Assembly: GCA_963749445.1 (NCBI GenBank)
Contig: CAVVMJ010000004.1
Coordinates: 93,015-157,014, forward strand
Length of the DNA: 64,000 bases
Reading direction: 5' to 3'
Source: an uncultured bacterium
GTDB taxonomy: Bacteria; Patescibacteriota; Doudnabacteria; UBA920
Part shown: positions 1,908 through 50,815 of the stretch, piece after piece
How positions within the stretch are numbered: the first letter of the stretch is position 1
Layout of the letters: every line of letters starts with the position of its first letter
Program-made: the position numbers and the translations under genes
The notes under the pieces: model-generated
The model's database searches: none
Told to the model about the DNA's origin: nothing
The model's input: the letters and a program-made list of their open reading frames with translations, nothing else

Positions 1908-3173
1908 ATGCTTGCCACGATACTTATTTTTATAATAATCCTTGGCGTTCTCATATTCGTCCACGAATTTGGGCATTTTGTGGTGGCCAAAAAAAGCGGG
2001 ATGAAGGTGGATGAGTTTGGGTTTGGGTTCCCGCCCAGGATGTTTGGGATTTATCAGGTTGACGGAAAATGGCGGTGGGTGTGGGGGCATAAAAATCCAT
2101 CGGCGACTCCAACCACCCCGTCCCGACTACGTCGGGACACCCCTCCTCAGCAAGGAGGGGAAGCTCCGCGGTTATCCCAGCAAAACTTCGGAGACTCTTC
2201 CCCTGATAAGGGGGAGTACCTCGCGAAGCGAGGGGAGGGGGTTGGAGATGAAACGGTTTACTCCATCAACTGGATTCCGCTAGGCGGGTTTGTGAAAATC
2301 CGCGGCGAGAATAATGAAAACGAGGATGACCCGCGTTCTTTTATCAACCGGCCGTTTTGGCCGCGGCTGGCTACTTTAGTGGCCGGCGTGTTTATGAATT
2401 TTGTGCTGGCTTGGGTGTTGATGTCAATCGGCGCGGGGATTGGCCTGCCCGCGGCCATCAGCAGTCCCAATGATTTGCCGGCCCACGCGCGTTTGGTTAA
2501 TCCCCAAATCGCCATCTTGGAGGTAATGCCCAATGCTCCGGCGGCCAAAGCCGGGCTAATGTCCGGCGATGTTATTTTGGATATAAATCACCAGCCTTTT
2601 GCCAGCGGCGAGGACATGAGTAATTATGTAAAAACGCACGCCGGCCAGAGTTTTTTATTTGACGTGGACCGCGACGGACAAAAATTATCCGTCAGCGTCC
2701 AGTCAATCGCCAATCCCGGCCCCAACCAGGGTCCAACCGGAATACAGTTAGCCAGCGTGGGCAAGCTGGTGTTCCCTTGGTATTTGGCGCCGTGGGAAGG
2801 GTTAAAGGTTTTGTATATTCAAACTTCCAGTTTCCTTTCGGGTTTGGGCCAGTTGATTACCGGTAAAGTGAGCGTTAGCAATTTAGGCGGCCCGGTAAAA
2901 ATCGCGCAAATAACCGGCCAGGTCCGGGCCATGGGTTTTGATTACCTGCTCCAGTTTGCCGCGTTTTTAAGCATTAATTTAGCGATTTTGAACATCCTGC
3001 CATTCCCGGCGCTAGACGGCGGCCGCGTGCTGTTTTTGATAATTGAAAAAGTCCGCCGCAAGCGCAATAATCAGGTCGTTGAACAATGGGTCAACACCAT
3101 CGGCTTCGCGCTTTTGATTTTGCTGATGGTCTTTGTTACGGCGCATGATGTTTTCAATATTTTTCACAAGTAA
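1908..3173 (+). CDS. rseP: RseP-like site-2 protease (M50 zinc metalloprotease with PDZ) carrying an in-frame palindromic repeat insertion
   Basis: HEFGHFVVAKK HExxH motif at N-term TM helix, PDZ-like segment (ILEVMPNAPAAKAGLMSGDVILDIN), C-terminal LDGG motif; residues ~TPTTPSRLRRDTPPQQGGEAPRL..SPDKGEYLAKRGEGVGD encoded by repeat element at 2109..2245. Confidence 0.85.
   Translation: MLATILIFIIILGVLIFVHEFGHFVVAKKSGMKVDEFGFGFPPRMFGIYQVDGKWRWVWGHKNPSATPTTPSRLRRDTPPQQGGEAPRLSQQNFGDSSPDKGEYLAKRGEGVGDETVYSINWIPLGGFVKIRGENNENEDDPRSFINRPFWPRLATLVAGVFMNFVLAWVLMSIGAGIGLPAAISSPNDLPAHARLVNPQIAILEVMPNAPAAKAGLMSGDVILDINHQPFASGEDMSNYVKTHAGQSFLFDVDRDGQKLSVSVQSIANPGPNQGPTGIQLASVGKLVFPWYLAPWEGLKVLYIQTSSFLSGLGQLITGKVSVSNLGGPVKIAQITGQVRAMGFDYLLQFAAFLSINLAILNILPFPALDGGRVLFLIIEKVRRKRNNQVVEQWVNTIGFALLILLMVFVTAHDVFNIFHK
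2109..2245 (+). repeat. RPE-like modular palindromic element, in-frame copy inside rseP
   Basis: ccaaccaccccgtc..gtcgggacacccctcctcagcaaggaggggaagctccgcg..ctcttcccctgataagggggagtacctcgcgaagcgaggggagggggttgg; nested hairpins and terminal inverted repeat ccaaccaccc/gggggttgg; highly similar to 28275..28407. Confidence 0.85.
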
Positions 3174-3185
3174 ACAGTAAGTGTT

Positions 3186-3802
3186 CCATCCCGACCGACG
3201 AGTGCAGCCGACCCGTTCGGCAATACTCAGGGTCGCCCTGAGCGAAGTCGAATGGGCGAGGAGTGGAGGGATCTGTTAAAATATATGCACTACTATGTAT
3301 ATATTATGTCCAGCTTAAGCGGAGTCTTATATATCGGATTTACTTCGGATTTAAGGAAAAGGGTATTTGAACATAAGAATGATATCGTTGAAGGATTTAC
3401 CAAGAAGTATAGGTGCCACAAACTAGTGTATTACGAGGCTGGTGAAAGTTTTGAAGGAGTGCTGGAACGTGAAAAGCAATTAAAGAAGTGGAGACGTGAT
3501 AAAAAAATTTGGCTGATCGAGAAAATTAATCCCACTTGGAAAGATTTAACCCCTGAGCTGGGAGTATAAAAATAATAAATAACAGATCCCTCCACTCCCC
3601 CTCGACTCGTTCCGATAAAGTCCGGATCTCACTCGGGGTCGGTCGGGATGGAAAGCCCCGTATTCCATTCCGAGCGAGCGGCAACAATAAGCAAATCGCG
3701 AGCCGAGGAATCTGTCAGACAAGATTACTTTATCAATTAAATTAATAGATCCCTCCACTCCGGCTGGCTTGGTATTGCGATGACAGCCGTCGGTCGGAAT
3801 GG
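3186..3802 (+). mobile_element. GIY-YIG nuclease cassette bounded by nested inverted repeats
   Basis: Perfect 18-bp IR GGAGTGGAGGGATCTGTT (3260-3277) / AACAGATCCCTCCACTCC (3581-3598) flank the ORF; outer IR ccatcccgaccgac (3186-3200) / gtcggtcgggatgg (3638-3651); extra partial copies at 3746-3761 and 3788-3802. Confidence 0.6.
3285..3569 (+). CDS. small GIY-YIG family nuclease (ORF track start 3252; likely start MHYYVYIM at 3285)
   Basis: YYVYIMSSLSGVLYIGFTSDLRKRVFEHKN...KLVYYE...REKQLKKW = GIY-YIG motif block. Confidence 0.75.
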   Translation: MHYYVYIMSSLSGVLYIGFTSDLRKRVFEHKNDIVEGFTKKYRCHKLVYYEAGESFEGVLEREKQLKKWRRDKKIWLIEKINPTWKDLTPELGV

Positions 3803-5061
3803 AGAAAATGATTATGAAACAATCACAATATTTCCTTAAAACATCAAAAACAACTCCAGCGGATGATCTTTCCATCAATGCCAAACTGCTGGAACAGGGC
3901 GGGTTTGTGCATAAGGAAATGGCCGGGGTGTACAGTTTTTTGCCTTTGGGCTGGCGGGTTTTATCCAAGATAGAAAACATCGTGCGCGAGGAAATGGATA
4001 AAATCGGCGGGCAGGAAATGCTGATGTCAGCGCTGCATCCCAAGGAAAACTGGGTTAAAACCGGAAGGTGGACCGCGCTGGACGTGTTGTTTAAGTTAAA
4101 ATCCCAGCATGGCAACGAATACGCGCTCGGCCCAACTCATGAGGAAATTGTTACGCCCGTGGCTTTACCCATTATCAGCTCCTATAAAGATTTGCCCCTT
4201 GCTGTTTATCACATCCAAACCAAATTCCGCGACGAGCCGCGCGCCAAGAGCGGACTTTTGCGCGGCCGCGAATTCCGGATGAAAGATTTGTACAGCTTCC
4301 ACGCCTCGGAGGAGGATTTGAATCAGTATTACGATAAAATCACGATCCCGGCTTACCAAAAAATTTACCAACGTCTCGGGCTGGACGCGCTGCTCACCGA
4401 AGCTTCGGGCGGTACGTTTTCCAAATTTTCCCACGAGTTCCAGGTGGAAACACAAAACGGCGAAGACACCATTTACATTTGCCAAAAATGCCGCTTGGCC
4501 AAAAACAAGGAAGTTTATCAGGAAGGCATTGAGTGCACCAACTGCGGGCCCACGACCTGGAAAGAAGCCATGGCTTCGGAAGTTGGCAACATCTTTAAAC
4601 TGCAACAGAAATATTCCTCGGCGTTTAACCTAAAATTCACCAATGCCGAAGGCAAGCAGGAATTGGTTTTGATGGGCTGTTACGGTTTGGGCACCACGCG
4701 CGTAATGGGCGTGATTGTGGAAAAATTCCACGATGATAAGGGCATTATTTGGCCGAAGGCGGTGACGCCGTTTCAGGTTCATTTATTAGATATCGCCCGT
4801 AGCGGGCGGATAGTATCCGCCCCTACGGAAGCGGATAAGATTTATCGGCAATTGCTTGATGCCGGGGTTGAAGTCCTGTATGATGACAGGGACCAGAGCG
4901 CCGGAGCAAAGTTTGCGGACTCGGATTTAATCGGCATTCCCACACGGATTGTCGTCAGCCCAAAAACTTTGGCCCAGCAATCGGTGGAACTAAAAAAGCG
5001 GTCATCCGATGAACATCAGTTAATCAAAATTTCCGGATTGCCGGCCGAATTATCCAAATAG
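3799..5061 (+). CDS. proS: prolyl-tRNA synthetase, short bacterial-type form lacking the INS editing domain, with a Cys4 insert
   Basis: N-term QSQYFLKTSKTTPADDLSINAKLLEQGGFV, class II motifs, C-terminal anticodon-binding domain; CQKCRLAK..CTNCGP insert where the editing domain normally sits. Confidence 0.88.
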   Translation: MEKMIMKQSQYFLKTSKTTPADDLSINAKLLEQGGFVHKEMAGVYSFLPLGWRVLSKIENIVREEMDKIGGQEMLMSALHPKENWVKTGRWTALDVLFKLKSQHGNEYALGPTHEEIVTPVALPIISSYKDLPLAVYHIQTKFRDEPRAKSGLLRGREFRMKDLYSFHASEEDLNQYYDKITIPAYQKIYQRLGLDALLTEASGGTFSKFSHEFQVETQNGEDTIYICQKCRLAKNKEVYQEGIECTNCGPTTWKEAMASEVGNIFKLQQKYSSAFNLKFTNAEGKQELVLMGCYGLGTTRVMGVIVEKFHDDKGIIWPKAVTPFQVHLLDIARSGRIVSAPTEADKIYRQLLDAGVEVLYDDRDQSAGAKFADSDLIGIPTRIVVSPKTLAQQSVELKKRSSDEHQLIKISGLPAELSK

Positions 5062-5135
5062 CGTAAAATAAAAATCAAAATTTAAAATTCCAAATCCGGC
5101 ATCAAACCATTGGGATTTTATTTTGTGATTTATAT

Positions 5136-5300
5136 AAGTGTCATCCCGGAATTTTCAGTTTCGGTATAATCAAGCCTGAAAATATCCGGGATCCAGTATC
5201 GGGACTTGACACGATAATTTCTTGTTCTGGATACCGGATATTTTTGACTTACTGATGTTATCCCCAAAGTCAAAAATTCCGGTATGACAAGAGAAAAGGC
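5136..5300. repeat. two tandem copies of the CCGGAATTTTT...AAAAATATCCGGGATCCAG hairpin-repeat family
   Basis: gtgtcatcccggaattttcag..ctgaaaatatccgggatccag and ccggatatttttgac..gtcaaaaattccggtatgacaag; related copies at 1846-1900, 15466-15532, 29286-29360, 50648-50815. Confidence 0.7.
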
Positions 5301-5330
5301 GCATGGACAGTCTGTAACGACAAAATAAAT

Positions 5331-6383
5331 ATGTTCAGAAAATTTTATCAGCGGTTTTCCAAAGACATTGCCATAGATCTCGGCACGGCCAATACCCTGG
5401 TTTACGTCAAGGGCAAGGGGATTGTGATTAACGAGCCGAGCGTGGTGGCGGTGAACCAGCGCACTAAACAAATTTTGGCTATCGGCTCGGAGGCGCGCAA
5501 AATGGTTGGGCGTACGCCGCCGCACATTGTAGCCACCCGGCCGCTGGTGGACGGCGTCATCAGCGATTTTGAAGTTACGGAAAGCATGCTGCGCTATTTT
5601 ATAGACAAAGTCCACGCGCAGACTTACACTTTTTTGCGGCGGCCGCGCGTGGTCATTGGCATCCCGAGCGGCGTGACCGAGGTGGAAAAGCGCGCCGTGG
5701 TGGACGCGGCCTTAAACGCCGGCGCCAGCGAGGCTTATTTGATAGAAGAGCCCATGGCCGCGGCCATCGGCGCCAGGCTGCCGGTGCAGGAAGCCATGGG
5801 CTGCATGATTGTGGACATCGGCGGCGGCACGGCGGAAATCGCGGTGATTTCCCTGGGCGGCATTGTGGTGTCCAAATCTTTGCGCATCGCCGGCGACGAA
5901 ATGGATCAGAACATCGTCCAGTACGCGCGGGAAAATTTTAACCTGCTTTTGGGCGAGCGCACAGCCGAACAGGTCAAAATCAACATCGGCAGCGCTTACG
6001 AGTTGAGCGAGCCGCTGTATACGCAAATGCGCGGCAGGGATCTGGTGTCCGGCTTGCCCAAGGAAGTGACCATTTCCGACACCCAGGTGCGGGAAGCCAT
6101 CATGCCCAGTCTGCGCACCATTGTCAATAACATCAAAAATGTCATAGAAGAAATTCCGCCCGAACTGATTTCGGACATTTTGGATAAAGGAATAATTTTG
6201 GCCGGCGGCGGCGCGTTGCTGAAGGGTTTGGACAAACTGGTGGGCGAAACCACCAAGATGCCGATTGTGGTGGCCGAAGATCCGCTGACCTGCGTGGTGC
6301 GCGGCGCGGGCATTGTGGTGGAAGATTTGGAAATCCTGCGGGACGTGCTGCTGCCGACGGATCTTGGGAAGATACTCAGGTAA
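5331..6383 (+). CDS. mreB: rod-shape determining protein MreB
   Basis: IAIDLGTANTLVYVKGKGIVINEPSVVAV...; actin-fold motifs; followed by mreC/mreD/mrdA. Confidence 0.95.
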   Translation: MFRKFYQRFSKDIAIDLGTANTLVYVKGKGIVINEPSVVAVNQRTKQILAIGSEARKMVGRTPPHIVATRPLVDGVISDFEVTESMLRYFIDKVHAQTYTFLRRPRVVIGIPSGVTEVEKRAVVDAALNAGASEAYLIEEPMAAAIGARLPVQEAMGCMIVDIGGGTAEIAVISLGGIVVSKSLRIAGDEMDQNIVQYARENFNLLLGERTAEQVKINIGSAYELSEPLYTQMRGRDLVSGLPKEVTISDTQVREAIMPSLRTIVNNIKNVIEEIPPELISDILDKGIILAGGGALLKGLDKLVGETTKMPIVVAEDPLTCVVRGAGIVVEDLEILRDVLLPTDLGKILR

Positions 6384-6384
6384 C

Positions 6385-6520
6385 CCAAAATGGTAATAAG
6401 TTGTAGGTTTTGGCAACCGGTACGGTTATAAATAAGTAGGGAGTAAGGCTCTGCCTAACTACAATTGACCTACAACCATACTGGCCGCCACACCTTACAA
6501 CTTATTACTATCAATCAACA
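6385..6520. repeat. large hairpin repeat, GGCGGCCAGTAC family (copy a)
   Basis: long imperfect inverted repeat around ...tactggccgccacacc...; related copies at 8010-8218, 16540-16655, 31222-31345, 36487-36605, each immediately downstream of a gene. Confidence 0.65.
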
Positions 6521-7320
6521 TGAGATTCATATACACCAAAACTTTTTTAGCCTTTGCCGCCTGTCTGGTGTTGGTGGCATTTTTGGTTTTTTTGCAGGCC
6601 AAAGGCTGGCTTTATCCCATAAGCGAGGCATTTTTGCAGGCGCCCCGGCCGGTTTACGCCATAACCCGCGGTATAGCCCGTCCGGTAAAAGGTTTTTTTG
6701 CCTCTATTTATTCCTTGCGCCAAATTGCCAAAGACAATTCGCAGCTGAAGCAGCAGGTGATGGCGCTGTCCCAGCAGGTGGCCGATTACGATCAACAAAA
6801 ACGGGAAAATGAGGCGCTGCGGCAGGAGCTGGGTTTCGTGAGTTCAGCCAAGTTTTCTTTGGTTCCCTGCGCCGTTTTGTCGGCTAACCCCGCCGGCCTG
6901 GCCAATACGCTGGTGCTCGGTTGCGGTTCGAATCAGGGCGTTATGGCCGGCCAGGCGGTGCTGTCGCAAGGGTATTTGGTGGCAAAAATCGTTTACGCCG
7001 ACAGGGGCGGCAGCACGGCGCTGCTCGCCACAGACTCCAAATTTACGGCGGATGCCCAGTTGAGCAAGACCGGCACGGCTGGGCTGGTTACGGGCTCTTA
7101 CGGCTCGGGGCTGCTGCTTGACCGCCTGTCGCAAAGCGATCAGGCTGAGAAAGGCTGGATGGTCGTGACCGCGGGCATCAACAATTTGGTGCCCAAGGGG
7201 ATTTTAATCGGCCAGGTGGACCAAATAGTTTCTTCCGCCAACGATTTGTTTAAAAAAGCCACCGTCTTGACGCCGATTGATTTTAACAATCTGAACTTTG
7301 TTTTCGTAGCAAAACCCTAG
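6520..7320 (+). CDS. mreC: rod-shape determining protein MreC
   Basis: N-terminal TM, coiled coil (LKQQVMALSQQVADYDQQKRENEALRQELGF), beta-rich C-term; operon context. Confidence 0.85.
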   Translation: MRFIYTKTFLAFAACLVLVAFLVFLQAKGWLYPISEAFLQAPRPVYAITRGIARPVKGFFASIYSLRQIAKDNSQLKQQVMALSQQVADYDQQKRENEALRQELGFVSSAKFSLVPCAVLSANPAGLANTLVLGCGSNQGVMAGQAVLSQGYLVAKIVYADRGGSTALLATDSKFTADAQLSKTGTAGLVTGSYGSGLLLDRLSQSDQAEKGWMVVTAGINNLVPKGILIGQVDQIVSSANDLFKKATVLTPIDFNNLNFVFVAKP

Positions 7321-7340
7321 ACCGCTGACCCGTTTGGCAA

Positions 7341-7372
7341 TGCTCAGGGTCACCTTGAGCAAAGCCGAAAGG
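7341..7372. repeat. CTCAGGGTCACCCTGAG palindrome-family copy
   Basis: gctcagggtcaccttgagc; other copies 3220-3250, 37521-37556, 49551-49600; often followed by 'gaatggacgctgaa' and short CAGCGACCAATCAGCG-type direct repeats. Confidence 0.6.
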
Positions 7373-7474
7373 TGAATGGACGCTGAATTTAACACCAACG
7401 CTGATTGGACGCTGAAGCGTCAAGTTCAGCTCAGCGACCAATCAGCGTACCCATCAGCGACCAATCAGCGGTAT

Positions 7475-15362: not shown

Positions 15363-15451
15363 GTGAAATCGCGAGTGCAGCCGAAGCGATCCCGCTAATA
15401 CCGTATAGTGTAAGGGATTGCTTCGGTCGGATGCACTCCCTCGCAATTTCC
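15363..15451. repeat. GAAATTGCGAG...CTCGCAATTTC nested-hairpin repeat family copy
   Basis: gtgaaatcgcgagtgcagccgaagcgatccc...ggattgcttcggtcggatgcactccctcgcaatttcc; other copies 16007-16083, 30193-30292, 44252-44336. Confidence 0.7.
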
Positions 15452-15535
15452 GATAATTTGTGTCCATCCCGGAATTTTTTGTGCCGATGGATAGCACAAG
15501 CCGCAAAAAATACCCGGGATCCAGAAAGTAATCGT

Positions 15536-15853
15536 ATGACAAAAAAAATTCTAGGCTGGATCATCTTTCTCGCAATATATATAATGGGGTACTATTATAT
15601 ATATTCACAAGGTTTAAGTGGGCCGAATTGCAAAGGGGCAGCTATCTGTTTTGATGTCTTTACGCCCGCGGCCAGTTTAATTGTCAAAGAGCTGTATTTG
15701 TTTTTGTGGCTTATATTATTCCCGATTTTTGCTCTCTCGTGGGTTTCGGTTAAAAGGAAATTCGGAGATAGAAAATGGACAAAAATTCTTGATTGGATAA
15801 TGATTGTAATCGGAATTTTGTTTATAGTTTATACAGCGTGGATGCATTTTTAA
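15536..15853 (+). CDS. small hypothetical membrane protein (start MTKKILGWIIFL)
   Basis: three hydrophobic helices; AT-rich; ORF track start 15431 lies in repeat DNA. Confidence 0.3.
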   Translation: MTKKILGWIIFLAIYIMGYYYIYSQGLSGPNCKGAAICFDVFTPAASLIVKELYLFLWLILFPIFALSWVSVKRKFGDRKWTKILDWIMIVIGILFIVYTAWMHF

Positions 15854-29254: not shown

Positions 29255-29469
29255 ACGCTGATATGTACGCTGATCTGTCGCTGAAACCCAATGTGTCCAT
29301 CCCGGAATTTTTTGCGCTGATGATTATCATGGGTCGCAAAAAATATTCGGGATCCAGGCACACGTTTCTTTCCCTTTTGCCAATTTTTTGGTACAATGTA
29401 CTTATAAACATCGCTTTGAAATAAATACTGACCGGCTGATAAGCGTATCAGCTGATAAGCTTGTAAGCT

Positions 29470-31528: not shown

Positions 31529-31974
31529 ATGAAGGTAATATTTATCAAGGATACACCGGGCCAGGGAAAAGGGGTGAAATCAAGGATGTCAGCGAAGGGT
31601 TTGCCCAGAATTTTTTGATACGCAAAGGCTTGGCTCAAGTCGCGACCGCCGATATCCAGGCCAAGATCGCCAAGGAAGCCAAAGAGGCGGAAAATAAGAA
31701 ATTAAAAGAAATTGGGAAATTGCAGGCTTTGAAATCGGAACTGGAAAAGCGTACCTTTACGGTTAAAGTCAAAGTCGGGGAAAAGGGCCAGATTTTCGGC
31801 AGCGTGCAGGAAAAGGATATTGCGGCCGCTGTGTCGGCTAAGCTTAATTATCCGCTGGAAAAGAACCAGATTAACATCGAAACTCCGATTAGGCAAACCG
31901 GCGAACATCAGGTCAAAGTAAAATTGGGCGGCGGTATTATTGCCGTGATCAAGATTAATGTGGAAGCGATGTAA
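31529..31974 (+). CDS. rplI: 50S ribosomal protein L9, apparent -1 frameshift in gggaaaagggg run (~31565-31575)
   Basis: frame A MKVIFIKDTPGQGK then frame B RGEIKDVSEGFAQNFLIRKGLAQ... matches L9 N-terminus across shift; ORF track shows only 31615..31974. Confidence 0.8.
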
Positions 31975-32054
31975 TCTTTCGCGGATACGCGGATATCACG
32001 GATAACACCGACCGCGAAATCCGCGCCATCTGCGTATCCGCGAACCAAACAATT

Positions 32055-33038
32055 ATGGATAACAACCTACCGCAAACTAATCTGCCAAGCAACAATCAGC
32101 TGCCGGAAAAACCCTCCATTTGGGTCACTAACCCGCACTTAAAAATGCTTTTGCTGGTTTTGATTTTTGTGTTTTTGGGTTGCGGGATTTTTTTGGTGGT
32201 ATTACAGCAATTGCAAATGAATTATCGGAAAACCATAAATGTTTCGGACTTGCCTAAACATCAGGTCAAACAAATTGTCTTGGCCGACGGCCGTCTGCAG
32301 GTGGACAACCCTAAAGAAGGGGACACAGTAGGCCAAACTTTTACTGTTTCCGGTTATGCGCAGGGGTGGTTTGAGGCCACGATCGCGGTAAAAGTTTTTG
32401 ACAACAACGAAAATCTACTTTACCAAAACAGTGTAATGGCTTCCGGGGACAATTACGGCCAGCCCGCGCCGTTTAACGGTAAGATAACTTTAACCGGTAC
32501 TTCAACCGCACCGGCCGGGAGGATTGAGTTTAATGATTATTCCCAAAAAGACGGGAATTTGGCATACCAGAAAGTCGTTCATATCAAGTTTGGTGATTAT
32601 AAGGCCATTGACACGACGGGGTGGAAAACCTATAAAAATGACCAGTATGGGTTTGAGTTACAGTACCCGCCAGATTGGAATTTTGAAATGATGCCCAGAT
32701 ACAATAAAGACGGTTCCGTTGCAGTCGGTTTATTTGATTTTGCTTTTACCCATCAGGGCGCTCTTGTCCGAATGTTGGTGTCGCCGTTGGGTGGTAGCGC
32801 ATACAGCCCGAGCCAACTTAAAAAAACTGAAAATTTAGACATGAATGGAAGCACAGTGAGAAAGAGTGAATTCGGAGATACAAATGGAACCTATGGCATT
32901 ATTGTTGATCAGTTTAACAACACGCAATACCCGCTTTTTGAAATTTGGTTCGGTCCGATTAATGCGAATGAGTATTTAAGTTTAAAAGATATTGCCCAAT
33001 TTGATCAAATGTTTTCAACTTTTAAATTTACCAAATAA
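32055..33038 (+). CDS. hypothetical membrane-anchored protein with Ig-like (Gmad2-like) beta domain
   Basis: single N-terminal TM; GDTVGQTFTVSGYAQGWFEATIAVKVFD beta-sandwich-like segment. Confidence 0.35.
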   Translation: MDNNLPQTNLPSNNQLPEKPSIWVTNPHLKMLLLVLIFVFLGCGIFLVVLQQLQMNYRKTINVSDLPKHQVKQIVLADGRLQVDNPKEGDTVGQTFTVSGYAQGWFEATIAVKVFDNNENLLYQNSVMASGDNYGQPAPFNGKITLTGTSTAPAGRIEFNDYSQKDGNLAYQKVVHIKFGDYKAIDTTGWKTYKNDQYGFELQYPPDWNFEMMPRYNKDGSVAVGLFDFAFTHQGALVRMLVSPLGGSAYSPSQLKKTENLDMNGSTVRKSEFGDTNGTYGIIVDQFNNTQYPLFEIWFGPINANEYLSLKDIAQFDQMFSTFKFTK

Positions 33039-33108
33039 TATTTAAGATTCCCGCTTTCGCGGGAATGACAAATTAAAAATTGAAAATTAAGAATTAAAAA
33101 ATTTATCT

Positions 33109-50647: not shown

Positions 50648-50815
50648 TAAAATTTTATTGGTGTCATCCCGGAATTTTTCGCGTACCGGATTATTATCGG
50701 CCGCGAAAAATATCCGGGACTCAGTATACGGTATCTGGATTCCAGATATTTTTGATATTTTTGGTTGCCGATGATTTTCCAATTTTAACCAAAAATTCCG
50801 GAATGACACAAGGGC
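50648..50815. repeat. CCGGAATTTTT hairpin-repeat family, composite copy
   Basis: gtgtcatcccggaatttttcgcg...cgcgaaaaatatccgggactcag...ccaaaaattccggaatgacacaag. Confidence 0.7.

Follow-up and report, generated by a model that had tools for sequence, protein, structure and literature searches.

A small gene for a GIY-YIG nuclease, closely framed by perfect inverted repeats, lies between rseP and proS on contig CAVVMJ010000004.1 of an uncultured Doudnabacteria-like Patescibacterium. Does this arrangement mark a mobile or selfish cassette, as a first, sequence-only reading of the DNA proposed, or do the repeats belong to the gene in another way? We addressed this question in a 64,000-nucleotide (nt) stretch of the contig, hereafter the window. 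The best-supported reading is that the locus holds an Ssn nuclease gene together with its putative cognate hairpins, which would act as single-stranded DNA (ssDNA), and that the gene has probably stayed here, strongly constrained, over a long period. For the inverted repeats, the most plausible interpretation is that they are copies of the Ssn target hairpin in defined orientations, not transposon termini.

The reference member of this family is SsnA of Neisseria meningitidis, a 94-amino-acid, single-domain GIY-YIG protein assigned to cd10448 (Chenal et al., Nat Commun 2025, PMC11893778). It binds an oriented hairpin repeat, NTS (CGTCATTCCCGCGMAVGCGGGAATCYRG, a dRS3 subset), solely as ssDNA, with no binding of duplex DNA, RNA or the reverse strand, and it cuts a few nucleotides 5' of the repeat in a reaction that needs Y6, Y17 and E64 (PMC11893778). 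The three bases ahead of the palindrome affect cleavage, while the C that follows the palindrome affects binding (PMC11893778). Strand-specific binding and cutting 5' of the repeat, confined to ssDNA, have been demonstrated for four family members, and the members tested do not cut double-stranded DNA. Bacterial SsnA homologues are flanked by “Ssn-related motifs” (SRMs), and in Neisseria SsnA lowers transformation by NTS-bearing DNA (PMC11893778).

The gene in the window and the hairpin modules around it, which we designate A to D, are as follows (L001, L003 and L092 are related assemblies described below).

3184-3277, + strand: module A, a type-1, SRM-like hairpin upstream of ssnA, with its 5' arm TTCCATCCCGACCGAC at 3184-3199 and its 3' arm GGAGTGGAGGGATCTGTT at 3260-3277
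3285-3569, + strand: ssnA homologue, a single-domain GIY-YIG protein of 94 amino acids, stop codon at 3567-3569, with Y6, Y16 and E63 aligned with the Neisseria catalytic residues
3581-3653, - strand: module B, type-1, inverted relative to A and just past the ssnA stop codon; the counterpart of the downstream module of L003/L092 plus a 21-nt insertion
3663-3720, + strand: module C, a degenerate type-1 hairpin whose closing stem is ATTCC/GGAAT, not ATCCC/GGGAT, both sides being changed and pairing kept
3742-3804, - strand: module D, type-1; the only downstream module of L001 is about 90% identical to it

The encoded protein matches PF01541 over residues 3-74 (E=1.3e-14), its sole Pfam domain. 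Its likely start is the ATG at 3285 (MHYYVYIM...), which yields 94 amino acids. An alternative ATG at 3252 would give an open reading frame (ORF) of 105 amino acids; it is an unlikely start, and that frame reads through the hairpin repeat. Pairwise BLASTP against the 94-amino-acid ORF of N. gonorrhoeae (L094:601-885), an orthologue that has Y6, Y17 and E64 and sits among NTS repeats, gives 47% identity (E=8e-29). A tblastn search of the N. gonorrhoeae chromosome gives E=5e-19, within the limit of E<1e-10 to Neisseria SsnA by which Chenal et al. delimit the family (PMC11893778). The catalytic Y6, Y17 and E64 of Neisseria SsnA are matched in the alignment by Y6, Y16 and E63 of the window protein; these three residues are invariant across 42 homologues, whose lengths range from 85 to 125 amino acids. 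At the level of sequence, the Pfam match, the alignment of catalytic residues and the direct comparison with Neisseria settle the question of fold and family. It is thus very probable that ORF 3285-3569 is a member of the Ssn family (SsnA-like, CDD cd10448) and that the inverted repeats are the arms of SRM-type hairpins.

Gene callers often extend ssn ORFs upstream through the hairpin, giving 105-125 amino acids instead of about 94 (L095 1109-1426; P0003, P0020, P0045 and others), and databases therefore contain spurious N-terminal extensions. Searching for the exact sequence of the 94-amino-acid protein returned no match; gene callers had recorded the 105-amino-acid form. The record used for the gonococcal comparison, L094 (NZ_CP119140.1, 2,168,363 bp), is entered as an N. 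gonorrhoeae plasmid; it is chromosome-sized and carries ssnA and NTS repeats. There the NTS copies nearest ssnA are not in a simple sense-gene-inverted order, and a sense-orientation NTS directly follows the stop codon.

The domain content also bears on a different account, in which the gene encodes a free-standing I-TevI/Seg-type homing endonuclease, which cuts the empty allele so that the gene spreads by repair, the inverted repeats being incidental. Such an account would draw on the GIY-YIG domain itself, on a faint resemblance to the group I intron endonuclease model and on presence and absence that vary at one locus. In the NCBIfam scan, however, that model (TIGR01453) gives the window protein only 17.3 bits, under its cut-off of 56, and a protein of 94 amino acids has neither a linker nor a DNA-binding domain. 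The gene occupies a chromosomal spacer between housekeeping genes, with no intron, intein or phage context, and the phage search yielded a single weak match (37% identity, E=5e-6) and no close relative. Moreover, homing does not predict the flanking hairpins that are conserved across phyla, and the family members tested do not cut double-stranded DNA (PMC11893778). The domain content contradicts the homing reading, which we regard as improbable in the extreme. A group I intron remnant was likewise ruled out, the element being far too short and without an Rfam match.

The two repeats that first drew attention to the locus resolve into one type of module. The 18-mer GGAGTGGAGGGATCTGTT at 3260-3277 recurs as its exact reverse complement at 3581-3598 and with one mismatch at 3744-3761; at up to 3 mismatches the window holds 3 matches, compared with 0.02 expected by chance. 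The 16-mer TTCCATCCCGACCGAC at 3184-3199 has a perfect inverse at 3638-3653 and weaker copies at 3663-3678 and 3789-3804 (4 matches versus 0.38 expected). They are the 3' and 5' arms, respectively, of a module of the form 5'-TTCCATYCCGA(C/G)CGA-[variable interior]-GAGGRATCTGT-3'. Four such type-1 modules, A(+), B(-), C(+) and D(-), are present, with the closing stem ATCCC/GGGAT in all except C. The gene thus stands between a sense hairpin (A) and an inverted one (B), followed by a gene-less inverted doublet (C/D). Besides the TTCCAT tag, type-1 hairpins are characterized by interiors of 27-62 nt and a tandem GA/AG adjoining the closing stem. They retain CAT, an ATYCC/GGRAT-type stem and the following C, and their tag is two bases longer (TGTTCCAT versus TGTCAT). 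The interior of module A is about 64 nt longer than in L003/L092 and holds a nested hairpin-like piece, GTCGCCCTGAGCGAAGTCGAATGGGCGA.

Most of what the sequence-only reading had described at this locus holds. The perfect 18-bp inverted repeat does flank the ORF, and the second, nested pair it reported is perfect over 16 bp (3184-3199 and 3638-3653). The partial copies it gave at 3746-3761 and 3788-3802 are real, being the two arms of module D (3742-3804, - strand); module C was absent from its list. It was right about the GIY-YIG domain and one residue too long with its 95-amino-acid ORF, and the rseP-proS location it named is borne out by the neighbouring genes, an M50 peptidase with a PDZ domain (rseP-like) on the left and a class II prolyl-tRNA synthetase on the right. 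An independent assembly, L095 (run ERR10755942), is 100% identical across window positions 2144-7458 (5.3 kb), so the repeat cluster is not an assembly artefact.

Could these repeats act as RNA, with a purely regulatory link to the gene? They would then pair between the 5' and 3' untranslated regions or serve as attenuators, terminators or mRNA stabilizers. In RNA folding, modules A and D do fold (z-scores of -2.1 and -2.5), the 3' arm of module A holds GGAGG 14 nt before the ssnA start codon, and a hairpin at 33046 follows a stop codon. Modules B and C, however, fold no better than shuffled sequences. Rfam at gathering thresholds and a tRNA/tmRNA scan gave no match in the whole window, and a promoter and terminator scan found nothing specific to the modules and none with a T tract. 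The hairpins occur in both orientations and in alternating arrays, whatever the direction of the genes. Finally, the asymmetric 5' tag and the 3' C match determinants of ssDNA binding and cleavage by SsnA, which does not bind RNA (PMC11893778). A role confined to RNA is therefore very unlikely in our judgement. Separately, the earliest in-frame ATG of proS (3799) falls within the outer end of module D; relatives suggest that the true start is at 3814. The GGAG at 3801-3804 within the module D arm lies immediately upstream of this likely start and would act as a ribosome-binding site.

The hairpin-gene-hairpin layout recurs well beyond this host. We scanned one genome per species with an alignment of homologues, which gave 590 confirmed stretches; 80 of them, 49-63% identical, were kept. 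They come from Acidobacteria, Proteobacteria, Patescibacteria, Omnitrophota, Bacteroidota, Chloroflexota, Clostridia, Planctomycetota, Cyanobacteria and others, and the rseP-proS context is common to just one of these loci. Their flanks carry TGTCAT-stem-loop-stem-C(CAG) upstream, for example TGTCATTCCCGCGAAAGCGGGAATCCAG, and its reverse complement downstream. Using a detector that requires the tag TC[AG]T and, beginning at its A or G, an exact stem of 5 nt or more, all within 110 nt, we found an oriented hairpin within 140 nt upstream of 57 of 84 gene copies and an inverted one downstream of 52 of 84, with both sides occupied in 41 of 84; shuffled flanks gave 7 and 4 detections. A C follows the 3' arm in 101 of the 109 hairpins, which represent 46 distinct stems. 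Among the 46 distinct short hairpins, both sides change in 5 of 8 stem pairs (35 cells versus 4.8 in shuffles), only the compensatory counts being informative because the set was preselected for near-perfect pairing. Across all loci, neighbouring hairpins alternate in orientation in 45 cases versus 14.

Outside the immediate surroundings of ssnA, the window contains the following hairpins.

1843-1904, + strand: T2a, type-2, in the frr-rseP spacer, of the form ..CATGCTGGAATTTTT..GAAAATATCCGGGATCCA
5138-5197, + strand: T2b, type-2, in the proS-mreB spacer, first half of an inverted doublet
5226-5290, - strand: T2c, type-2, in the proS-mreB spacer, second half of the doublet with T2b
15461-15525, + strand: T2d, type-2, tagged GTCCAT and apparently intergenic; it falls within a mechanically called ORF (15431-15853) that in reality probably begins later
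29294-29358, + strand: T2e, type-2 with tag GTCCAT, intergenic
33046-33072, - strand: a short canonical Neisseria NTS-type hairpin, TGTCATTCCCGCGAAAGCGGGAATC, in the spacer after an ORF ending at 33038
50661-50725, + strand: T2f, type-2, intergenic, first half of an inverted doublet
50734-50809, - strand: T2g, type-2, intergenic, second half of the doublet with T2f

This brings the window, which is about a third of the 199-kb contig and the scope of these counts, to 12 hairpins: four type-1, seven type-2 and one Neisseria-like, all intergenic or apparently so. Type-2 hairpins, picked up with the detector described above, have the form GTCATYCCGGAATTTTT-[inner stem]-AAAAATAYCCGGRATCCA, with a long, A/T-rich inner stem. 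Matches to their arm patterns are enriched in the window (10 versus 1.3 expected, and 7 versus 0.5 expected). A type-2 covariance model scores 64-80 bits on its seven source copies and detects no additional type-2 copy elsewhere in the window. It also matches both flanks of the ssn gene in L014, a second Doudnabacteria genome (E ~6e-8), which makes type-2, too, a genuine Ssn-associated hairpin. A weak match of the model at 31973-32049 is an unrelated GC-rich intergenic palindrome, TTCGCGGATACGCGGATATCACGG...CGCGAAATCCGCGCCATCTGCGTATCCGCGAA.

Several points weigh against assigning this locus to the Ssn system. The Patescibacterial phylum receives no mention in Chenal et al. (PMC11893778). Neither the published SRM pattern, HGTCWYN(0-2)YYVSBRHN(0-5)WNVSBRGN(0-2)RNCYNB, nor the NTS pattern has a match in the 64-kb window. 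Because the type-1 hairpins carry the tag TTCCAT rather than GTCAT and have interiors as long as 27-62 nt, that they are SsnA substrates is something we infer. The type-2 hairpins, moreover, may be owned by the window SsnA or by a second paralogue elsewhere in the genome; the window itself yielded no second ssn gene, the gene copy number being one. As for the pattern, it matches upstream of 20 and downstream of 18 of the 84 gene copies at homologous loci and so misses most of them. We read its failure in the window as a reflection of a narrow pattern, not as evidence against Ssn membership.

The history of the locus was examined in related Patescibacterial assemblies. L001, L002-L009 and L092 carry SsnA homologues 85% and 81% identical to the window protein in the same order, frr-rseP-gene-proS-mreB, and four related lineages have the cassette between rseP and the next gene. 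The assemblies GCA_964363335.1 and GCA_964477745.1, like the L001 genome, are ssn-positive. Identity among the lineages is 81-85% for SsnA, compared with 66-68% for Frr, 51-53% for RseP, 73% for ProS and 85% for MreB, so that SsnA is better conserved than RseP, Frr and ProS and about as well conserved as MreB. Across the window, L001, L003 and L092 the arms of the hairpins do not vary, whereas insertions and deletions set their interiors apart. Upstream of the gene, L003/L092 have a minimal hairpin of 29 nt; the L001 module is longer, and the window has the longest. Downstream, window module B resembles the module of L003/L092 and module D that of L001. Because SsnA is this similar where RseP is only about 51-57% identical, the sequences indicate long vertical inheritance of ssnA at the rseP locus under strong constraint, and not recent mobility.

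Empty sites, which the sequence-only reading had proposed to look for, were sought through ProS homologues on long contigs. Three relatives, L090 (GCA_016218585.1), L091 (GCA_003151625.1) and L093 (GCA_034680565.1), have the same gene order and no GIY-YIG gene, and none of their empty sites holds a hairpin remnant. In L090 a single base separates the rseP stop codon from the next ORF, whereas the extra DNA of the occupied L092 consists of the cassette and some 13 nt more. No more than 6-8 nt separate the indel boundaries from the hairpin tags, and the compared occupied and empty boundaries show no target-site duplication and no excision junction. By pairwise identity, occupied and empty sites are interleaved. 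L001, which has the cassette, is nearest to L091, which lacks it (ProS 86%, MreB 97%), and L003/L092, which have it, are near L090, which does not; the window is the outgroup. This pattern therefore requires at least three clean losses or at least three gains at the same spot. The frr-rseP and proS-mreB spacers, in which the window carries type-2 hairpins, are occupied in L001 by different doublets: inverted pairs of a hairpin type particular to L001, GCGTCATCCTGAGC...GAAGGATCTC, at 1531-1693 and 4618-4781. Such occupancy of orthologous spacers suggests independent arrivals or rapid turnover. The ssn-negative relatives have no hairpins across the 6 kb examined, including both of these spacers.

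A mobile-element reading would draw on these observations. In such a scheme, the hairpin-ssnA-hairpin cassette would be autonomous and the gene-less inverted doublets would be its non-autonomous miniature derivatives, gained and lost as whole units. SsnA would cut single strands 5' of outward-facing hairpins and the host would complete excision and insertion, making the system a GIY-YIG counterpart of IS200/IS605 or RAYT/REPIN. Chenal et al. point out the insertion-sequence-like NTS-ssnA-NTS layout and raise the same RAYT/REP parallel for Neisseria, where cutting likewise occurs a few nucleotides 5' of the hairpin (PMC11893778), in keeping with the indel boundaries close to the tags. The interleaving of whole-cassette presence and absence in the host tree with remnant-free empty sites would fit, as would the different doublets in orthologous spacers of the window and L001 alongside hairpin-free ssn-negative relatives, the roughly 64-nt insertion with its nested hairpin-like piece in module A, and the alternation of adjacent hairpins.

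Against this scheme stands the stability of the gene: there is one copy in 64 kb, at the same position despite an RseP identity of about 51-57%, and SsnA is more conserved than most of its neighbours. A single stable copy with such conservation is more in line with a gene kept by the host than with one that hops. The distribution is explained equally well by three independent losses and by three gains, and no target-site duplication or excision junction is seen at the compared sites. There are no close phage homologues, and plasmid matches are mostly on large, nearly all non-mobilizable replicons. To our knowledge, GIY-YIG enzymes are hydrolytic and have no known strand-transfer chemistry, which we also count against mobility. 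On balance we regard the mobile element as possible but unlikely, though decidedly less improbable than homing or a purely RNA-level role. A classical insertion sequence or miniature inverted-repeat transposable element moved by a transposase was ruled out: the protein has no transposase domain, the window carries the gene only once, and the boundaries of occupied and empty sites show no duplication.

The broader proposals of the sequence-only reading can now be placed. Its defined unit, with ends that also occur as solo copies, is supported by the whole cassette in four lineages, by clean empty sites in three interleaved relatives (L090, L091 and L093), and by C and D beside the gene plus eight intergenic hairpins in the window. 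Its proposed homing or selfish element survives only as a discrete unit with solo hairpins: the unit is not of the homing type, has no recognized transposase and appears to have been inherited vertically for long. The search it suggested for further copies had a divided outcome, in that the exact 18-mer is unique to this locus and there is one ssn gene in 64 kb, whereas the hairpin family is dispersed. It had held that repeats unique to this locus, with relatives carrying the gene between diverged flanks, would speak against a mobile unit; instead, the hairpin arms are invariant in relatives and the family is dispersed.

The window rseP contains an in-frame, GC-rich insertion of about 140 nt at 2107-2247, bracketed by CTCCAACCACC/GGGGGTTGGAG and holding several small perfect palindromes (GTCCCGAC/GTCGGGAC, CCCCTCCT/AGGAGGGG and AGGGGAAG/CTTCCCCT). 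RseP has 421 amino acids in the window versus 372 in most relatives, and the insertion looks like a palindromic repeat element tolerated within the coding region. In most relatives, an ORF of 178-209 amino acids with no Pfam match lies between rseP or ssnA and proS (L003 3404-3940; L092 1978-2514; L090 1962-2504; L091 1885-2514). It is missing from the window, L001 and L093, and window positions 3654-3813 hold the C/D doublet in its place. One lineage only (L003 1476-1781, also L004-L006) has a small gene of the PDDEXK_3 nuclease fold (PF13366) between frr and rseP, another small stand-alone nuclease gene that is patchy at the rseP locus.

Returning to the Ssn nuclease with its cognate hairpins, we propose that an enzyme of about 94 amino acids would bind a specific oriented hairpin on ssDNA and cut the strand a few nucleotides 5' of that hairpin. 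The arms of SRM hairpins would make up the inverted repeats, with a sense copy upstream and an inverted copy downstream as in NTS-ssnA-NTS; the extra inverted doublet C/D would adjoin the gene, and more hairpins would lie scattered in intergenic spacers. By analogy with the characterized members, we infer that the window SsnA binds only ssDNA and cleaves beside its hairpins. It is plausible that, in a Patescibacterium dependent on DNA uptake, the enzyme acts on single strands that carry such hairpins, incoming transforming DNA among them.

On this reading, the locus would extend the Ssn nuclease and hairpin system, characterized in 2025 only in Proteobacteria, to a bacterium of the candidate phyla radiation. 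It defines two new hairpin variants, one combining long interiors with the TTCCAT tag, the other marked by an A/T-rich inner stem, and indicates that the published search pattern misses real family members. Together with SsnA, these variants may provide ready enzyme/substrate pairs for the ssDNA tools under development from the Ssn family. For annotation, the system would explain a class of small genes labelled “GIY-YIG nuclease family protein”. The presence or absence of whole cassettes and the lineage-specific doublets bear on whether ssn cassettes are or were mobile; if they are, the system would represent a route of transposition or excision mechanistically unrelated to HUH, DDE or recombinase elements.

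Comparison with known systems helps to place the window cassette. I-TevI and Seg enzymes have the catalytic domain in common with the window SsnA and differ in their DNA-binding domain, duplex cutting and residence in introns or phages. The closest solved structure by sequence is the UPF0213/YhbQ protein BH0048 (PDB 1ZG2), also a small stand-alone GIY-YIG protein; it is distant (E=1e-4) and of a different subfamily, and the PDB sequence search returned only this protein and no SsnA structure. We know of no report of hairpin repeats associated with UPF0213 proteins. IS200/IS605 elements are similarly compact, and their enzyme recognizes subterminal ssDNA hairpins and cuts beside them. Their ends, however, are on the same strand rather than inverted, and their TnpA is an HUH enzyme, whereas the window cassette has neither TnpA nor TnpB.

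A closer parallel is offered by REP/REPIN sequences and their RAYT (TnpA-REP) proteins, where a nuclease gene, present once and passed on vertically, lies between inverted copies of a dispersed intergenic hairpin and the repeats often form inverted doublets or alternating arrays. RAYTs have the HUH/Y1 transposase fold and act through covalent intermediates, whereas the window SsnA is a predicted GIY-YIG hydrolase without sequence relation to them; no Y1_Tnp fold was found in it, GIY-YIG being its sole Pfam match. The hairpin at 33046-33072 resembles the Neisseria dRS3/NIME repeats in having the dRS3 core ATTCCC-N8-GGGAAT and the GTC tag of the NTS subset; it is a single short copy in the window, where the other eleven hairpins are longer variants. 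The nearest relative overall is the Neisseria Ssn system. The window system differs from it in its Patescibacterial host, its TTCCAT tag and long interiors, and its second, dispersed A/T-rich hairpin type, and its enzyme is known from sequence. The two share a 94-amino-acid, single-domain GIY-YIG protein, 47% identical and with the catalytic Tyr/Tyr/Glu aligned, a sense hairpin upstream and an inverted one downstream, a conserved 5' tag with a C after the 3' arm, and extra hairpins in intergenic DNA.

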